64,000 nt of DNA from Elusimicrobiota bacterium (GTDB lineage Bacteria > Elusimicrobiota > Elusimicrobia > Elusimicrobiales > UBA9959): NCBI GenBank assembly GCA_003450815.1, contig DMES01000002.1:5591-69590 (forward strand). Reading direction: 5' to 3'. A program made the position numbers and the translations under genes. Below, one piece after another: positions 1,394-13,954 of this stretch. Within the stretch, counting starts at the first letter, position 1; every line of letters begins with the position of its first letter. The notes beneath the pieces were generated by a model. It saw nothing but the letters and a program-made list of their open reading frames with translations, was not told where the DNA came from and searched no databases.

Positions 1394-3589
1394 ATGAATT
1401 CCGATGATCCAAAAATAAAGAAAGCCGTGGTTCCCCTTGAAGGCGTGCATTGCGCCTCCTGTGTGGCGCGCATTGAAAAGAGCCTGGGCAATACCCGCGG
1501 TATAGACCGCGTTTCAGTGCACCTTCCTTCAAAAACAGCTTTCCTTTTTTATGACCCCGCTTTGATCACCCCGCTTCAGATAGAGGGGAAAATTGAAGAA
1601 CTCGGCTACAAGGCACTGGCTTTTTCAGAGTCAACGCTGAAGTCGGAAAGCGTGGCGGTGGAATCGCTCCTGCGCGAAAAAGACATGTTCCGCAACCGTT
1701 TCTGGCTTGCGGCCGGCGGAGCCTTGTTTTTGTTTTCAGGCGGTTTTTTTGATCTTTCCCCTTATACCGGCATGCCGGTTGCGGCTGTAGTCTGGCTTTG
1801 GGGAGGCCGGCATTTCCACCAGGGGATGTTTAAGTCTTTAAAGGCCAGAACAGCCAATATGGATACACTGGTTTCCATGAGTACCAGCGTTACTTTTTTT
1901 TACGGGGTGTTTGTCACTCTTTTCCCATCGGTCATCCCGGTTTCATATCACGCCCAGTGGCATGAAGTGGCTATGCTCATAGCTTTCATCAATCTGGGCC
2001 GCTGGCTTGAGGCCCGCTCAAAAAACAAGGCGGGAGAGGCGGTTTCGCGCCTTTTTTCAATTGTGCCCAAGTTCGCCCGCCGTCTTCGGGCGGGCGCCGA
2101 GGAAACCGTGCCGGTTTCAGATATAGTGCCCGGCGATATTGTCAGTCTGCGCCCCGGAGAGCAGGTTCCGGTGGACGGTGTGGTAAAGCGCGGCGCCTCG
2201 GCCCTTGATGAAAGCCTGCTCACCGGCGAGGTACTGCCGGTGGATAAGTTGCCCGGCTCAAAACTTTACGCCGGCACCATAAATAAAAACGGGGCTTTGG
2301 AATTTAAGGCCACCGGTGTCGGAGAGGATATGGTGCTGACAAAAATTATAAAAGCTGTGGCTGAGTCCCAGGCGGCAAAAAGTTCAATACAGCACCTAGT
2401 GGATAAAATTTCGGCCTGGTTCGTGCCGGCTGTTTTTTTTATAGCGGCTTTTTCAGCCGCCGTATGGCTGCGTTACGGAGAACCCTCCCAGGCGGTAAAT
2501 GTCTTTGCCGCGGTACTCGCGGTGGCCTGCCCCTGCGCAATGGGGCTTGCGGTTCCCATGGCGATAGTGGTAGGTTTCGGACGCGCGGCAGCTTCAGGTA
2601 TTCTTATAAGGAACCCTGATGTGCTTGAGCACGCGGCAAAAATTGACGCGGTTTTATTCGACAAGACGGGCACTTTGACCTCGGGGCTGCTTCGGGTAAT
2701 AAATGTAAAACCTAACGATATATCCGAAGGTTCATTCGTAGAATTGCTAGCGTCAGTGGAGGAAAAATCGGAACATCCGCTGGCGCACGCGGTGCGGCAA
2801 TTCGCCGCTGAGCGCGGCATAAAACCGGAGACGCCCGCATCCTTTGAGGCGCTACCCGGGAAAGGCGTAAGGGTTAAGTTGTCGGCGGGCTTGGCGCTTG
2901 CGGGATCCGCCAAGTGGCTTGCGTATAAAGGCGTGTCTATACCGGAGTCCGCGCTTGCCGCGCTTGATGGAACAGAAGGTTCCGCCCTGTTCTTGGCGTT
3001 AAACGGCCAGTTTAAGGGATATGCCGAGTTTGGCGACGCTTTACGACCGGAGGCCCCGGCCGTGCTTCGCGCGCTGAGCGATATGGGAATTGAACCGGTG
3101 CTGGTTTCCGGCGACCGCCAAAAAGCGGTAATGGCTGTGGCGCAAAAGCTTTCCATAAAAACCTTTTACTCTGAAATATTCCCTGAGGAAAAACGGCGGA
3201 TCTTGCTGCGCTACAAGGCCCTTGGCAGAAAGACGGCCATGGTCGGCGACGGATTTAACGACGCCGCGGCTCTTTCCGAGGCCGACATAGGAGTGGCCAT
3301 GCGTTCAGGCGCCGATATCGCCGTGCGTGCGAGCGATATAACCCTTATGAATAACGACCTTTCTTCCCTGGTGGAAGCGGTCAAGCTTTCGAGGGCCATT
3401 AAAAAAGTGATCAACCAGAATCTTTTCTGGGCTTTCGCGTACAATACCGTGCTTATCCCGCTTGCGGCCGGGGCGCTGTATCCTTCTTTGGGCTTTACCA
3501 TCCCGCCCTACTTTGCCGGCGGAGCCATGGCTTTAAGTTCGGTTTCTGTGGTAATTAATTCTCTCAGACTGAGAAAAATGAGAATATGA
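1394..3589 (+). CDS. copA: Copper-translocating P-type ATPase
   Basis: HMA domain GVHCASCVARIE, CPC motif (ACPCAMGLA), DKTGTLT phosphorylation site and GDGFNDAAAL hinge. ATG 1394 (MNSDDPK...) is preferred over the track start 1337, which overlaps the upstream gene. Confidence 0.9.
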   Translation: MNSDDPKIKKAVVPLEGVHCASCVARIEKSLGNTRGIDRVSVHLPSKTAFLFYDPALITPLQIEGKIEELGYKALAFSESTLKSESVAVESLLREKDMFRNRFWLAAGGALFLFSGGFFDLSPYTGMPVAAVVWLWGGRHFHQGMFKSLKARTANMDTLVSMSTSVTFFYGVFVTLFPSVIPVSYHAQWHEVAMLIAFINLGRWLEARSKNKAGEAVSRLFSIVPKFARRLRAGAEETVPVSDIVPGDIVSLRPGEQVPVDGVVKRGASALDESLLTGEVLPVDKLPGSKLYAGTINKNGALEFKATGVGEDMVLTKIIKAVAESQAAKSSIQHLVDKISAWFVPAVFFIAAFSAAVWLRYGEPSQAVNVFAAVLAVACPCAMGLAVPMAIVVGFGRAAASGILIRNPDVLEHAAKIDAVLFDKTGTLTSGLLRVINVKPNDISEGSFVELLASVEEKSEHPLAHAVRQFAAERGIKPETPASFEALPGKGVRVKLSAGLALAGSAKWLAYKGVSIPESALAALDGTEGSALFLALNGQFKGYAEFGDALRPEAPAVLRALSDMGIEPVLVSGDRQKAVMAVAQKLSIKTFYSEIFPEEKRRILLRYKALGRKTAMVGDGFNDAAALSEADIGVAMRSGADIAVRASDITLMNNDLSSLVEAVKLSRAIKKVINQNLFWAFAYNTVLIPLAAGALYPSLGFTIPPYFAGGAMALSSVSVVINSLRLRKMRI

Positions 3590-3649
3590 TTACACGGATT
3601 TAATACGGCGATTACACAGATTGTATCTTGATCCCAGAAACAAAAGTTG
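3588..3649. repeat. Left copy of GATTACAC-rich inverted repeat
   Basis: 3588-3632 is the reverse complement of 4664-4708 with 3 mismatches in 45 nt. Looser complementarity continues to 3649/4647. It starts on the copA stop codon. Confidence 0.85.
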
Positions 3650-3663
3650 GCGAAGGAGTATAT

Positions 3664-4074
3664 ATGAAAACAAAGTTCGGCTATACTTCGGGCCAGGCCC
3701 GCAGCGTGGGGAAAATAACACTGCCGAGTATTGAGGCCTGGGAAAACCAGTACAGACGGGATTACACTATAAAGATAGTCCACCCGGAATTTACCTCCGT
3801 CTGCCCGAAAACAGGTTTGCCTGATTTCGGCACGATTACTGTTGAATATATCCCGGGGAAAATGGTGCTGGAACTTAAGTCGCTTAAGTATTATTTCCTG
3901 CAATACCGAAATATCGGTATTTTTATGGAAAATATAGCGAACCGTGTTCTTGACGATGTGGTGCGGGCTATAAAGCCAAAAAGCTGTACGGTAACCGGAG
4001 AGTTCACCCCCAGAGGCGGCTTACGCTCAGTAATAACCGCACAATACAAGAGAAAACCCCAAAAAATCAGATAA
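3664..4074 (+). CDS. queF: NADPH-dependent 7-cyano-7-deazaguanine (preQ0) reductase, unimodular type
   Basis: PEFTSVCPKTGLPDFGTITVEY and the QueF motif ELKSLKYYF. ATG 3664 is preceded by a GAAGGAG RBS. Confidence 0.85.
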   Translation: MKTKFGYTSGQARSVGKITLPSIEAWENQYRRDYTIKIVHPEFTSVCPKTGLPDFGTITVEYIPGKMVLELKSLKYYFLQYRNIGIFMENIANRVLDDVVRAIKPKSCTVTGEFTPRGGLRSVITAQYKRKPQKIR

Positions 4075-4096
4075 AATGTTGCTTCAACATTTTATT
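4073..4096 (+). terminator. Hairpin overlapping the queF stop
   Basis: aaaatgttg-ctt-caacatttt is a perfect 9-bp stem followed by a T-rich tail. Confidence 0.5.
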
Positions 4097-4119
4097 AGGA
4101 TTTGCGAAAAGAATGCGGG

Positions 4120-4148
4120 TTGCCGTCCTAAAAAATATATTATAAAAT
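4120..4148 (+). promoter_or_regulatory. Sigma70-like promoter candidate (TTGCCG-17-TAAAAT)
   Basis: TTGCCG at 4120-4125, a 17-nt spacer and TAAAAT at 4143-4148. It would drive the non-coding region and tRNA-Val downstream. Confidence 0.4.
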
Positions 4149-4170
4149 CACAGTAAGAGATATCGCTCTT

Positions 4171-4194
4171 CTGTGCAGTGCGGGCGGGGTGCGA
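4171..4194 (+). repeat. 24-nt perfect direct repeat, copy 1
   Basis: ctgtgcagtgcgggcggggtgcga is identical to 4367-4390. Both copies are followed by ..aggccc and a CCC...GGG-closed hairpin. Confidence 0.9.
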
Positions 4195-4366
4195 TAGGCC
4201 CGTGCGAATACCTTCGTTAGAGAGCACGGGTTCCTTTTAGGAGAGGTTCAGTGAGCGTTTCCGGCTTAATGCCGGAATAGCGAACGACGAAGGGGAGCTT
4301 AGCTCCCCTCGTGGAGCACCGGGCCGCGATACCTTTTAAGGCCCGGCGGTTAATCCGCCCCGAACG

Positions 4367-4390
4367 CTGTGCAGTGCGGGCGGGGTGCGA
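4367..4390 (+). repeat. 24-nt perfect direct repeat, copy 2
   Basis: Identical to 4171-4194. Confidence 0.9.
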
Positions 4391-4395
4391 CAGAG

Positions 4396-4445
4396 GCCCA
4401 GTTGGCGCAGCGGGTAGTGCCCTGGGAAAGTATGACACAGTCGGC
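4396..4445 (+). pseudogene. tRNA-Val-derived remnant (5' acceptor and D arm only)
   Basis: gcccagttggcgcagcgggtagtgc (4396-4420) matches the first 24 nt of the intact tRNA at 4480 with one indel and one mismatch. The tgggaaag that follows matches the 3' anticodon stem. No anticodon loop or T arm can be formed. Confidence 0.5.
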
Positions 4446-4479
4446 ATAGCTATTTTCCGGAGCCCGCAAAGCGGTTTTT

Positions 4480-4554
4480 GCCCAGTTGGCGCAGCGGTAG
4501 CGCGTTCCCTTGACATGGGAAAGGTCACAGGTTCGATCCCTGTACTGGGCACCA
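4480..4554 (+). tRNA. tRNA-Val (anticodon GAC), CCA encoded
   Basis: Manual cloverleaf: acceptor GCCCAGT/ACTGGGC, D arm GCGC-AGCGGTA-GCGC, anticodon arm TTCCC-TTGACAT-GGGAA, variable AGGTC, T arm ACAGG-TTCGATC-CCTGT, then A-CCA. Confidence 0.9.
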
Positions 4555-4560
4555 TTTTTA

Positions 4561-4586
4561 GTTCCTGCTCTAACAGCAGCAGGAAC
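4561..4586 (+). other. Perfect 9-bp hairpin after the tRNA (processing or terminator element)
   Basis: gttcctgct-ctaacagc-agcaggaac. No clear T run follows. Confidence 0.4.
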
Positions 4587-4589
4587 AAT

Positions 4590-4633
4590 GATTACACAGA
4601 TTACCGGGGAAGATTACACAGGTTAAGATGTAG
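4590..4633. repeat. Degenerate direct copy of the GATTACAC repeat
   Basis: gattacacagattaccggggaagattacacaggttaagatgtag has the same two GATTACAC words 22-23 nt apart as 3588-3632. It faces the inverted copy at 4647-4708. Confidence 0.6.
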
Positions 4634-4646
4634 TAGTTTGGTTTTA

Positions 4647-4708
4647 CAGCTTTTGTTTCAGAAATCAAGATGCAATCTGTGTAATCGTCGTGTTAAATCC
4701 GTGTAATC
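4647..4708. repeat. Right (inverted) copy of the GATTACAC-rich repeat
   Basis: See 3588-3649. It ends 11 nt before the thrS ATG. Confidence 0.85.
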
Positions 4709-4719
4709 ATAATTCTTTT

Positions 4720-6489
4720 ATGGTAGAAGAAAAACCTGAAAATTATGTTGAAAAAATGCGCCATTCGCTGTCGCATGTCATGGCGGAGGCAGTGGTGGAG
4801 CTTTTCCCCGACACGAAACTGGGTATCGGGCCGGCCATAGAGAACGGTTTTTATTACGATTTTGACACCCCTCATCATTTCGTCCCCGATGATTTGCCCG
4901 CCATAGAAAAGAAAATGCGCCATATTATAGCCCAGGCGCAGAAATTTGAGCGGTCAGAAATGCCGAAGGAAGAAGCGCTAAAGTATTTCAGCGGTCGGGG
5001 TGAAAAGTACAAAGTGGAACTGGTCAGCGACCTGACCGACGGCACTATCAGCATTTATAAAAACGGGCCTTTTTCGGACCTGTGCAAGGGACCGCATGTA
5101 GAGCATACCGGCAAGATCAAGGCCTTTAAGCTTATGTCTATCGCCGGCGCTTACTGGCGCGGCAACGAAGCGAACCCGATGCTTCAGCGCATATACGGCG
5201 TGGCCTTTGAAACTCCGACGGAACTTGACGCCTATATTAAAATGCAGGAGGAGGCGGCAAAGCGCGACCATCGTAAGCTTGGCAAGCAGCAGGAGATTTT
5301 TGTCTTTGACGATGATGTCGGCCCCGGGCTTCCTCTTTGGCTGCCCAACGGCGCTGTGATAATAGAGGAGCTTGAGCGGCTGGCCAAGGAAACCGAGGCC
5401 GCCAGCGGCTATCAACGCGTAAAAACGCCGCATATCTGCAAAGAGACTTTGTACCGAAAAAGCGGCCACCTGCCGTATTATGCGGAAAGCATGTTCCCCG
5501 CGATGGATATTGACGGGCAGAAATATTACCTGAAGCCGATGAACTGCCCGCACCACCACAAGATATACGGCGCCAAGCCCCGCAGCTACCGCGACCTGCC
5601 CGTGCGCCTGGCCGAGTACGGCACCTGCTACCGCTACGAACAGTCCGGAGAGCTTTTTGGCTTGATGCGCGTGCGCTCGATGCAGATGAACGACGCTCAC
5701 ATCTATTGCACACCGGAGCAGTTTCAGGAGGAGTTCCTGGCGGTCTGCCGCATGTATCTTGGCTACTTTAAGATCTTCGGCATAGAAAAGTATGTTATGC
5801 GTTTCAGCACGCATTCAGACGAAGGGTTGGGCAAGAAATATGTGGATAACAAAGAGATGTGGCAGTCCACGGAAAAAATGGTCCATGAGGCCTTGGTTAA
5901 CGGAGGGTTGCCGTTCAAGGAAATCCCCAACGAGGCCGCATTTTACGGCCCGAAGATAGATGTCCAGATCTGGAGCGCCATAGGCAAAGAGTTCTCTTTG
6001 GCAACCAACCAGGTGGACTTTGCCGTGCCGGGCCGCTTCGGCCTGGTGTATAAAGACAAGGACGGTACTGAAAAGACTCCGCTGTGCATACATCGCGCGC
6101 CGCTGGGCACACATGAGCGCTTTGTGGGATTTCTTCTGGAGCATTTCGCCGGCCACTTCCCCTTGTGGCTTGCTCCCACGCAGGTGAAAATTTTAACCAT
6201 TACTTCAAACGAAGAGGATTATGTCCGCGGGATTTCAGATAAACTGAAAGCTGAGGGCTTCAGGGTTTCGCTTGACCTTGGCGCCGATACCATCGGCTCC
6301 AAAGTGCGCCTTGCTGCCATAGAAAAACCTGCCTGCACGCTGATAGCCGGCAAGAAGGAGAAGGCGGAAGGCACCATCGCCCTGCGGCTTAAAGGCGGCA
6401 AAAACCTTTACGGCCTTAAGCCGGATGAGGTTATAGCTAATCTCAAAAAAGAAAGGGACAGCCGCGCGCTCGTCAGCGTGTATATTTAG
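4720..6489 (+). CDS. thrS: Threonine--tRNA ligase, short form without the N-terminal TGS domain
   Basis: Editing-domain HSLSHVMAEAV motif, RDHRKLGK, class II catalytic core (NCPHHHKIY, FGLMRVRSMQMNDAHIY) and an anticodon-binding C-terminus. ATG 4720 (MVEEKPEN) is chosen because the track start 4690 lies inside the repeat. Confidence 0.9.
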   Translation: MVEEKPENYVEKMRHSLSHVMAEAVVELFPDTKLGIGPAIENGFYYDFDTPHHFVPDDLPAIEKKMRHIIAQAQKFERSEMPKEEALKYFSGRGEKYKVELVSDLTDGTISIYKNGPFSDLCKGPHVEHTGKIKAFKLMSIAGAYWRGNEANPMLQRIYGVAFETPTELDAYIKMQEEAAKRDHRKLGKQQEIFVFDDDVGPGLPLWLPNGAVIIEELERLAKETEAASGYQRVKTPHICKETLYRKSGHLPYYAESMFPAMDIDGQKYYLKPMNCPHHHKIYGAKPRSYRDLPVRLAEYGTCYRYEQSGELFGLMRVRSMQMNDAHIYCTPEQFQEEFLAVCRMYLGYFKIFGIEKYVMRFSTHSDEGLGKKYVDNKEMWQSTEKMVHEALVNGGLPFKEIPNEAAFYGPKIDVQIWSAIGKEFSLATNQVDFAVPGRFGLVYKDKDGTEKTPLCIHRAPLGTHERFVGFLLEHFAGHFPLWLAPTQVKILTITSNEEDYVRGISDKLKAEGFRVSLDLGADTIGSKVRLAAIEKPACTLIAGKKEKAEGTIALRLKGGKNLYGLKPDEVIANLKKERDSRALVSVYI

Positions 6490-12851: not shown

Positions 12852-13954
12852 AAGACAGGTTTTGGGCCGGGAAAAAGGTGTTCCTTACGGGCAATACAGG
12901 CTTTAAGGGAAGCTGGTTGTCGCTGTGGCTAAATAGTATGGGCGCCAAAGTTTATGGCTATGCCCTGAAGCCGCCTACCAGGCCCAGCCTTTTTGATCTT
13001 TGTTCCATCGGCAAAATAACAAACACAACCATCGCCGATATCCGCGACGCTGGCCGCCTTAAAAAGGCGCTTAAAACGGCCTTGCCCGATATAGTTATCC
13101 ATATGGCGGCTCAGCCGCTGGTACGAGAATCTTACCGTGCGCCGGCGGAAACCTACGATACCAACGTGATGGGGACTGTGAACCTGTTGGAGGCTGTGCG
13201 CGCCTGCGGCAGAGTGAGAGCGGTGGTAAATGTCACCACCGACAAGTGCTATGAGAACAAGGAACGTCCGATTGCCTATCGCGAAGGCGAGCCCCTTGGT
13301 GGTTATGACCCGTATTCCTCCAGCAAGGCCTGCTCCGAGCTGGTCACTTCCGCCTACCGCAACTCATTTTTCAACCCCATGTGCTATTCTCTTAACTCTA
13401 AACTCTTAACTCCCAACTCACAACTTTCGTCTCACCATGTGGCTTTAGCTTCGGCCCGCGCGGGCAATGTGATAGGAGGGGGAGACTGGGCGGACGACAG
13501 GCTTATACCGGATATAATACGGGCTGCTTTGAGCGGCAAAAAAGTCCTGATAAGGAACCCCCGCGCAATAAGGCCATGGCAGCATGTGCTTGAGCCTTTG
13601 AGCGGATACCTGCTTCTGGCGCAGAAACTTTACCGGAAGGGCCCCGCCTATGCCCAGGCCTGGAATTTCGGCCCGGTGGAGTCAGACGCTAAAGATGTGG
13701 AATGGATAGTAAAACGCATGTTCCAAAAGTGGAGTGTCGCTCCCGGCTATGTTTTGGACTCATCCCGCCATCCGCATGAGGCCCATTACCTTAAACTGGA
13801 TTCTTCAAAGGCGCGGCGCGCGCTGCTCTGGCGTCCGCGCTGGAATATCGGCCAGGCGATAGACCGGGTTATTGATTGGACAGAAGCCTATACGCGCAAA
13901 GAAGACATGCGAGGGGTCTGTTTAAGGCAGATAGAAGGATATGAAGAGGCATAG
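12848..13954 (+). CDS. rfbG: CDP-glucose 4,6-dehydratase, carrying a repeat-encoded insertion
   Basis: KKVFLTGNTGFKGSWLSLWL, YDPYSSSKACSELV and RAGNVIGGGDW. ATG 12848 overlaps the rfbF stop (ATGA). Confidence 0.85.
   Translation: MKDRFWAGKKVFLTGNTGFKGSWLSLWLNSMGAKVYGYALKPPTRPSLFDLCSIGKITNTTIADIRDAGRLKKALKTALPDIVIHMAAQPLVRESYRAPAETYDTNVMGTVNLLEAVRACGRVRAVVNVTTDKCYENKERPIAYREGEPLGGYDPYSSSKACSELVTSAYRNSFFNPMCYSLNSKLLTPNSQLSSHHVALASARAGNVIGGGDWADDRLIPDIIRAALSGKKVLIRNPRAIRPWQHVLEPLSGYLLLAQKLYRKGPAYAQAWNFGPVESDAKDVEWIVKRMFQKWSVAPGYVLDSSRHPHEAHYLKLDSSKARRALLWRPRWNIGQAIDRVIDWTEAYTRKEDMRGVCLRQIEGYEEA
13389..13437 (+). repeat. Heptamer-periodic tract inside rfbG
   Basis: ctcttaa ctctaaa ctcttaa ctcccaa ctcacaa ctttcgt ctcacca encodes ...SLNSKLLTPNSQLSSHH... 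Confidence 0.7.

Follow-up and report, generated by a model that had tools for sequence, protein, structure and literature searches.

Bacterial tRNA 5′ leaders are usually regarded as short and disposable. Among the RNAs known to share a transcript with a tRNA, the RtT RNA of the E. coli tyrT operon (RF00391) forms structured repeats of about 170–200 nucleotides (nt) with an obscure function; it carries a partial tRNA copy and is released from the tRNA primary transcript by processing. The 3′ETS-leuZ small RNA sponge and MALAT1/mascRNA are also RNAs parted from tRNA-like structures by tRNA-processing enzymes. The element analysed here, called X, lies in a 64,000-nt stretch of an Elusimicrobiota contig (hereafter the window), inside a 330-nt region (4150–4479) between queF and a tRNA-Val(GAC) gene. 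Comparative sequence analysis indicates that X is a conserved eight-helix RNA family of about 195 nt, absent from Rfam.

RtT appears to be the closest known analogue of X without being its homologue, RF00391 giving no match in the window or in 19 X-bearing loci. RtT lies 3′ of its tRNA, contains the tRNA 3′ end and is confined to one tRNA, whereas X lies 5′, has a companion module (Y) containing the tRNA 5′ part, and occurs at many tRNA identities and at transfer-messenger RNA (tmRNA). As in 3′ETS-leuZ and MALAT1, a non-tRNA RNA would come from the same transcript as a tRNA-like structure, if X is released as proposed below; those RNAs are, in contrast, single-locus and short or unrelated, X being a multicopy eight-helix 5′-leader module. 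ROOL and GOLLD are ornate bacterial RNAs of obscure function that frequently neighbour tRNA genes, with which they may share a transcript (PMC5737381). They differ from X (about 195 nt) by their 500–800 nt, their frequent prophage location and the fact that they do not abut tRNA position +1; both are in Rfam, and neither matched the window or the 19 X-bearing loci. T-box RNAs are likewise structured leaders linked to tRNA, and X GUGGAGUACCG is superficially like T-box GGUGGUACCGCG, but T-boxes precede aminoacyl-tRNA synthetase or amino-acid genes, whereas X precedes tRNAs. A T-box assignment was rejected, since RF00230 gave no match, the UGGN-like tetranucleotide is variable (UGGA, UAGA, UGAA, UAAA), no terminator is present and the downstream gene is a tRNA. 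Finally, REP/BIME, ERIC, Correia and REPIN elements resemble X in being multicopy, patchy, tandem or clustered, and in breaking assemblies. They are, however, simple palindromes or have terminal inverted repeats, often with a cognate transposase, whereas X has a strand-specific multi-branch fold, lacks inverted termini and meets RNase P substrates at a precise junction.

At gathering thresholds, Rfam reported tRNA and tmRNA only in the 19 X-bearing loci. With Rfam 15 at E ≤ 10 over 4000–4750 of the window, the best score over the region was that of tfoR, 13.7 bits against a 70-bit threshold. No description of an X-like element was found by full-text literature searches, some of them with sequence strings, or by term searches within two motif surveys from the Breaker laboratory. 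Homologues were collected by scanning metagenome contigs with an exact pattern of the two most conserved strings, GGTTCAGNGAGCG...GCGANCGAC, which returned at least 120 loci, mostly by chance; about 35 of the matches listed pass a covariance model built from 15 units, whose E-values are rough (shortened calibration). BLASTN and the covariance model together give at least about 28 distinct X loci and at least 33 units. The X of the window, itself in the seed, scores 192.8 bits, and non-seed homologues score 21–138 bits. Three viral-contig pattern matches were chance matches that fail the covariance model; X was not found in viral contigs, and a phage origin was rejected on that ground. The X loci are mostly metagenome contigs, some not labelled as Elusimicrobia, of apparently Elusimicrobia-type uncultured bacteria. 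The first-pass annotation of this DNA, which had been unable to match the region to tmRNA, RNase P, SRP, T-box, preQ1, cobalamin or ykkC-type features and had read it as a possible unclassified structured RNA or leader, is thus supported on both points: Rfam gives tRNA only, at gathering thresholds and at E ≤ 10, and the homologue collection and covariation check that it had proposed revealed homologues with strong compensatory changes.

The 330-nt region is modular and not one RNA domain. It comprises the remnant of a truncated unit, a complete X unit and the tRNA-derived hairpin module Y, laid out as follows.

4120–4148, plus strand: promoter-like site TTGCCG-17-TAAAAT, a candidate from its hexamers and from comparison
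4150–4174, plus strand: small hairpin (ACAGUAAGAG...CUCUUCUGU) near the presumed transcript start, not conserved in L017, the orthologous locus described below
4171–4197, plus strand: copy 1 of the 24/27-mer, with the P7 loop, P7 3′ strand, P8 3′ strand UGC and linker GAUAG
4195–4396, plus strand: complete X unit, matched by the covariance model over all 195 positions
4199–4230, plus strand: P1 hairpin CCCGUGC/GCACGGG with a conserved 16–18-nt loop, ..ACCUUCGU(U)AG..; 6 of 7 pairs covary
4232–4247, plus strand: P2, a short hairpin whose 3′ strand continues into the invariant GGUUCAG
4251–4285, plus strand: P3, with tandem G·A/A·G (GYGAGC/GCGARC), 100% paired
4259–4277, plus strand: P3a, distal hairpin on P3; 6 of 7 pairs covary
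4287–4312, plus strand: P4 hairpin (ACGAAGGGGAGC uua GCUCCCCUCGU)
4316–4388, plus strand: 3′ domain, in which P8 encloses P5, P6 and P7
4316–4318 with 4386–4388, plus strand: P8, GCA with UGC, which covaries
4319–4346, plus strand: P5
4347–4357, plus strand: P6
4358–4385, plus strand: P7
4367–4393, plus strand: copy 2 of the 24/27-mer, with the last P7 5′ base, the P7 loop, the P7 and P8 3′ strands and the linker start
4389–4395, plus strand: single-stranded linker GACAGAG (GACA and 3 nt)
4396–4479, plus strand: Y module, made of a tRNA-Val-derived hairpin, a spacer with a 4-bp hairpin, and U5
4396–4438, plus strand: Y hairpin, with tRNA positions 1–18 kept, the anticodon arm largely deleted and a CCCAG/CUGGG stem
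4464–4474, then 4475–4479, plus strand: the 4-bp hairpin that ends the Y spacer, then U5

In the 5′ domain, P1–P4 are arranged around a near-invariant junction, GGUUCAG-YGAGCG...AGCGARCGACGA. The P1 loop follows the consensus ..(U/A)CCUUCG(U/C)AGCAA.., and P3a is a variable hairpin capping P3. About 60 unpaired or junction nt are near-invariant (GGUUCAG-GAGCG, AGCGA-CGACGA, CCUUGU-GAGCAC). When a manual structure is applied to a MAFFT alignment, pairing reaches 90.3% and two-sided changes occur at 25 of 54 pairs, against 34–49% pairing in slid controls. Over 27 model-aligned sequences, pairing is 91.3% and compensatory changes affect 34 of 53 pairs, in 187 cells, against 41–51% pairing and at most 17 compensatory pairs in slid controls. 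The latter counts are inflated by the fit of this alignment to the model, a bias of which the MAFFT-based count is free. P8 was found by inspection and its two-sided covariation was counted separately: GCA/UGC becomes GUA/UAC (L198a, L088), GCG/CGC (L089, L186), GCC/GGC (L123) or GGGA/UCCC (L096, L149).

Folding energy is strong, the minimum free energy of 4150–4479 being −149.8 kcal/mol (z = −4.0 against shuffles on the plus strand). The minus strand also reaches z = −3.8, so that folding energy alone does not tell which strand matters. The X helices contain 40 G·U/U·G cells versus 3 A·C/C·A cells, an excess which places the fold on the tRNA-sense strand. X is thus a real, strand-specific and conserved fold. 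RNAalifold suggested a pseudoknot in which UCGUA of the P1 loop would pair with UGCGA of the tail; it was set aside, since the tail bases form the covarying P8 and the changes in the loop pairing are one-sided only. A divergent subfamily (L090, L093, L130, L140, L157, L189) lacks P1; its P1-type loop is placed in P5, and its P4 loop has a large insertion. Separately, an insertion of about 55 nt, GGUGGACUUAGCGGCAGUCUUGCGCCACC AUGGACACAAU, is seen between P4 and P8/P5 in L088 (about 13175–13235) and L098 (about 4700–4760). It resembles a tRNA-Ser-derived module that follows X elsewhere (L089, L186), and its GACACA(A/G)U motif is also present in the Y of the window.

Most features that the first-pass annotation had read from the window stand. 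CTGTGCAGTGCGGGCGGGGTGCGA is found exactly twice in 64 kb, at the two positions that it had given (4171–4194 and 4367–4390), which is beyond chance: 100 shuffles gave zero matches, even with 3 mismatches allowed. If one mismatch is admitted, the repeat is 27 nt long. The partial tRNA-Val copy (5′ part) that the annotation had placed at 4396–4420 is borne out by the 18/18 identity of 4396–4413 to 4480–4497, and 4418–4430 matches tRNA-Val 4511–4523 at 85%. The hairpins that it had described are present. Its view that no credible open reading frame (ORF) is present also holds, the ORFs over the region having TTG or GTG starts only, two long ones running into the tRNA gene, and X homologues differing by indels with lengths that are not multiples of 3. 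ARAGORN and Rfam call tRNA-Val(GAC), 4480–4554, alone. The one-base gap reported before the tRNA was in error: the T-run ends at 4479 and directly abuts +1 at 4480. As to the promoter candidate, the hexamers at 4120–4148 are present, with 9 of 12 consensus matches, while by itself the site is no better than chance (about one such site per kb is expected). Its putative status draws on comparison, as X homologues begin 10–45 nt after a −10 box, a TATAAT-like box being found at this distance 5′ of X in at least 12 loci. A promoter-like string, GTTACCAAATATCCTAAAAT, is common to L111, L086 and L135, upstream of X or tRNA-Leu; these belong to one group of metagenome contigs, in which the string precedes several tRNA/X transcription units.

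The duplicated 24-mer is the 3′ border module of the X unit, made of the loop and 3′ strand of P7, the 3′ strand of P8 and the linker, of which copy 2 (4367–4390) includes the first two bases. It is duplicated because a partial unit sits upstream, as in the tandem arrays seen elsewhere: copy 1 is the border module of a 5′-truncated unit, the rest of which is absent. Partial units also precede full units in L088, L172, L085 and L017, the one in L088 retaining P5–P7 (partial covariance-model match). The two border modules of L017 share only about 11 nt, so that the perfect 24-mer is specific to the window lineage. Together with the two A·G mismatches that it leaves in the P7 of the window, this perfect repeat suggests recent recombination or gene conversion. 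Short-read contigs of other samples break at or near the border repeats, and one independent contig, L207, has its first base precisely at 4367 and matches the window without difference from there on.

The context of X could be counted at 27 loci with an intact 3′ side. X directly abuts a tRNA in 15 of them: Leu-CAA, Leu-GAG, Arg-CCT (3 loci), Arg-GCG, Arg-TCT, Ser-TGA, Ser-GGA (3 loci), Lys-TTT, Gly-TCC, Ala-GGC and Pro-CGG. It reaches a tRNA (Val, Ser) through a Y module in four more and abuts tmRNA in three (L140, L178, L189), so that X stands before a tRNA or tmRNA in 22/27 loci. The family is therefore not tied to tRNA-Val, at least eight amino-acid identities and tmRNA being represented among the matches listed. 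In most homologues, the window not included, X adjoins +1 through a 7-nt single-stranded linker, GACA and NNN. In ARAGORN coordinates, 3 nt separate GACA from +1 at 15 of the 22 junctions, with a range of 2–6, and two or three of the 2-nt spacings are ARAGORN boundary differences relative to Rfam coordinates. Two X copies (L096/L165, L149) stand alone with no tRNA downstream, which argues that X is more than a passive leader. At two loci where an mRNA follows, the start codon comes only 1–2 nt after GCGACA (L158, 1266–1270; L093, 12570–12576). The first (RelA/SpoT-like) has no obvious Shine–Dalgarno sequence; in the second, the P7 3′ strand itself supplies AAGGAGG.

The observations, namely the X family, its fold and strand, its junction geometry, its multicopy status and its patchy presence, can be read in several ways. 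The leading one, to which we give about even credence, takes X for an RNA module carried in the leader, transcribed together with the tRNA and detached by RNase P cleavage, its biology being partly that of a repeat element. Transcription would start at the promoter just upstream and run through the remnant (4171–4197), the full X unit and Y into the tRNA. Cleavage by RNase P at the tRNA 5′ end would then detach the whole leader, and would give X a precise 3′ end at loci where X abuts +1. The released, structured X could persist and act in trans as a partner of a protein or RNA. The protein subunit of bacterial RNase P is reported to touch the leader at positions −4 to −8, with a preference for A at −4 (Koutmou et al. 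2010), which fits GACA at −7 to −4. The idea of an additional promoter, or of a terminator, separating X from the tRNA was considered and rejected: no convincing −35/−10 pair lies within Y, and the would-be intrinsic terminator at 4464–4479 has a stem of only 4 bp (CCGC/GCGG), where 5 bp or more are expected, was not reported by the terminator scan, and is not conserved, hairpin or U5, in other Y-bearing loci.

Several points weigh against the leader-module reading. Three of the 27 copies precede mRNAs (MotA family, NrdR, RelA/SpoT-like HD_4), where RNase P cannot define the 3′ end. Only a subset of the tRNAs on the same contigs carry X, which is thus not needed for tRNA maturation. In the window, the 84-nt Y separates X from tRNA-Val, so that RNase P would release X plus Y and not X alone. 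That X is co-transcribed, released by RNase P and stable, and that it acts in trans at all, are steps that we infer, and a selfish repeat would account equally well for the multicopy status, the tandem arrays and the patchy presence. Most homologues come from the exact-pattern scan, which biases the sampling towards the conserved core, and to this is added the inflation of the model-based pair counts mentioned above.

The next reading, possible but clearly less probable, is that X is a selfish repeat cassette which colonises tRNA and tmRNA leaders as harmless, highly transcribed sites. RNase P would remove anything 5′ of +1, spread and turnover would proceed by border-module recombination without host benefit, and the fold would be kept for the cassette's own propagation or to keep the leader inert. 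This is not mutually exclusive with the leader-module reading. X is multicopy, as are MITE- and REP-type repeats, and patchily present at orthologous loci; at the DNA level it behaves as a repeat, with tandem amplification, loss by border-module recombination and exchange between loci. In favour of a selfish nature are the tandem arrays of two (L094, 205.7 and 204.4 bits), two (L198) and three units (L104), the 5′-truncated units, the two copies L098 and L172 on one 118-kb contig (Ga0118677_10000236), the seven units on five large contigs of the same metagenome, and the identity of up to 95.7% between copies at unrelated loci (L090 versus L093, L093 versus L140: 95%). The X of the window shares 88.6% identity with the X of L193, which precedes a tRNA-Leu, but only 82.8% with its orthologue in L017. 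L002 is identical to the window over 3530/3530 nt until about 4207 and then has a different X body, nearer to that of L193 (89.9%) than to that of the window (86.6%), which could be either a true cassette exchange or an assembly path through the repeat.

The orthologous spacer points the same way. About 33 Elusimicrobia loci have the same tRNA-Val after queF. A TATAAT-type box and 8–20 nt are usually all that separates the two, and this spacer is highly variable among relatives. Among these loci, the whole 330-nt region has a homologue only in L017 (77% identity), X being present at queF/tRNA-Val in the window strain and L017 only. L005, L009 and L015 have a solo border hairpin followed by GCGACAGAU-like sequence only, and L024 has only the 3′ domain of X (P5–P8), as three hairpins and GGUGCGACAAGG directly before the tRNA. 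The same spacer hosts other mobile insertions in relatives. Several findings would be unexpected for a selfish repeat: the spacing to +1 is constant at about 3 nt across unrelated tRNAs, which a merely harmless site does not predict; some 60 unpaired nt are near-invariant across divergent subfamilies, which is unusual for junk; and neither terminal inverted repeats nor target-site duplications nor a transposase accompany X. One terminus (AAGCCCGCG...) is not the inverted form of the other (...GGUGCGACA), and the direct repeat flanking the unit is part of the unit and not a target-site duplication, L094a lacking the left copy.

The contents of this spacer in relatives are diverse. L024 has a Y-family DNA polymerase gene with IMS domains (3405–4634, minus strand) inserted between queF and the tRNA. 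A 120-amino-acid 23S_rRNA_IVP ORF (PF05635, E = 4e-37) lies between queF and tRNA-Val in L004 (3454–3816), L020 and L025, in a cassette flanked by GGAAGG/GCAACGGAAGG-type repeats. L030 has an IS200-like Y1 transposase (PF01797, 3495–4145) flanked by GTTAACCCTGAGGGTTAAC palindromes, which is a RAYT/REP-like arrangement.

The Y module follows GACAGAG directly, where other loci have the tRNA itself. It is a copy of tRNA-Val minus most of the anticodon arm and everything past the start of the T-stem, deletions which create the new CCCAG/CUGGG hairpin. Positions 1–18 are exact; most of the anticodon arm, the 3′ half of the T-arm and the 3′ acceptor strand are missing, and neither ARAGORN nor RF00005 calls Y (4396–4479) as a tRNA. 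One to three tandem Y (pseudo-tRNA-Val) units, GCCCAGUUGGCGCAGCGGUAGCNCCCUGGGAAAGUAUGAC..., precede tRNA-Val in L011, L017, L023, L026, L028 and L032. The non-tRNA part of Y (CCCUGGGAAAGUAUGA) is conserved across species with QueF only about 80% identical to that of the window, and L089 and L186 have a comparable module, derived from tRNA-Ser, after X.

It is rather unlikely that X acts in cis on the output of the RNA that follows it, for instance by controlling how RNase P reaches the cleavage site, by shielding the 5′ end or by helping RNA polymerase to resist termination on untranslated transcripts. Such a role would suit an element placed at the extreme 5′ end of transcripts, just after promoters, with a short linker of fixed length to +1, and found also before three mRNAs; in the window, the upstream 24-mer could moreover compete for the P7 and P8 5′ strands, giving two alternative folds. 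It accounts poorly for downstream genes that share no theme, for tandem and stand-alone copies, and for the many tRNAs that manage without X. No terminator/anti-terminator pair was found either, the scan detecting no terminator and the hairpin and U5 being unconserved.

Bolder, and to be thought still less probable, is the idea of a new ornate RNA class with an RNase P-dependent life cycle that spreads by RNA-level joining or acts as a ribozyme at the junction. The 3′-OH of a leader would be joined to another 5′-monophosphate tRNA or tmRNA and the product copied into DNA; such a route, or a junction ribozyme, would explain the ~3-nt junction shared by unrelated tRNAs, the 5′-side truncation and the tandem arrays together. 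Lower again in our estimate stands the view that X is catalytic, as a putative self-cleaving ribozyme at the unit borders or tRNA junction, or mobile at the RNA level, the RNase P-released leader being re-joined to other 5′-monophosphate RNAs and copied back into DNA. The large ornate fold with its many invariant unpaired nt, the tandem units with a fixed border sequence, the exact 3′ junction with targets that are structurally similar but unrelated in sequence, and the truncation on the 5′ side are all consistent with it. No Rfam ribozyme family matched, however, even at E ≤ 10 (including hammerhead, hepatitis delta virus (HDV)-like, twister, twister-sister, hatchet and pistol), no reverse transcriptase or ligase gene is linked, and the junction spacing varies from 2 to 6 nt. 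By inspection, X has no hammerhead core, the tandem G·A of P3 being flanked by Watson–Crick pairs on both sides, and its P1 comes without an equivalent of the P3/L3 of HDV.

The alternative offered by the first-pass annotation, a scar left at the tRNA gene by duplication or integration, is barely credible if taken as the whole explanation, without any RNA-level function: duplication does account for the perfect 24-mer direct repeat and the partial tRNA copy, and the locus is an insertion hot spot in relatives, but the covariation in eight helices across at least about 28 loci is left unexplained and already contradicts a scar for X, the family is present at many other tRNAs, and the non-tRNA part of Y is conserved between species. 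A classical attachment (att) scar was rejected in particular, since such scars are 3′ fragments, whereas the copy here is the 5′ part of the tRNA, only 84 nt upstream, with queF and thrS as neighbours and no integrase nearby.

Two further known systems were discarded. GCGAACGACGAA, which resembles the ANDE... start of the tmRNA tag, might suggest a tmRNA; ARAGORN is negative for tmRNA in the window, the string is paired in the P3 3′ and P4 5′ strands, and homologues have 7–10-nt indels at this place that are not multiples of 3 and break the reading frame. The border GUGCGAC looks like the GUGYG 5′ consensus of group II introns, for which Rfam gave no match and 195 nt is too small; its UGC is the covarying P8 3′ strand, and is thus not an intron end.

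The window is identical to JGI contig Ga0103681_1000161, and its nearest QueF relatives (77–88% identical) all come from Elusimicrobia/Elusimicrobiales metagenome-assembled genomes. The gene order is P-type ATPase, queF, the 330-nt region, tRNA-Val(GAC) and thrS.

3′ end at 3589: heavy-metal P-type ATPase
3664–4074: queF
4480–4554, plus strand: tRNA-Val(GAC), CCA encoded, found by ARAGORN and Rfam (68.3 bits)
4720–6489: thrS, the next gene after tRNA-Val

The region forms a GC island in an AT-rich spacer (GC 55–69% versus 30–40% in flanking intergenic DNA). The threonyl-tRNA synthetase of the window is a short form of 589 amino acids, with tRNA_SAD, class II core and anticodon-binding domains and without the N-terminal TGS. 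A perfect 11-bp hairpin (ATAAAATGTTG/CAACATTTTAT, 4071–4095) overlaps the queF stop codon, and a GC-rich hairpin without U-run (GUUCCUGCU...AGCAGGAAC, 4561–4586) lies just 3′ of tRNA-Val; the terminator scan reported neither as a terminator. Three copies of a composite repeat of about 55 nt, with two GATTACAC(A/G)G boxes spaced by 22 nt, are found at 3583–3640 (plus strand), 4585–4625 (plus strand) and 4656–4713 (minus strand). Copies 1 and 3, each just 5′ of a start codon (queF, thrS), are inverted repeats with about 90% identity that bracket queF, X and tRNA-Val, and 4583–4715 folds as a long hairpin (z = −5.7). The motif was not found in any other fetched locus and is therefore strain-specific; it could represent operator sites, MITE ends or an invertible segment.

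What stands out in X is an eight-helix RNA of about 195 nt, with more than 30 covarying pairs, connected by a 7-nt linker to the RNase P site of many tRNAs and of tmRNA. Under either of the two foremost readings, an alignment, a covariance model and a testable structure are provided for a family missing from Rfam. If X is selfish, it would be the first known repeat specialised on the 5′ boundary of RNase P substrates, and one would have to ask by what means it recognises a target that is defined by RNA structure. Should X be a stable product, it would constitute a new family of abundant non-coding RNAs, generated as a by-product of tRNA maturation.

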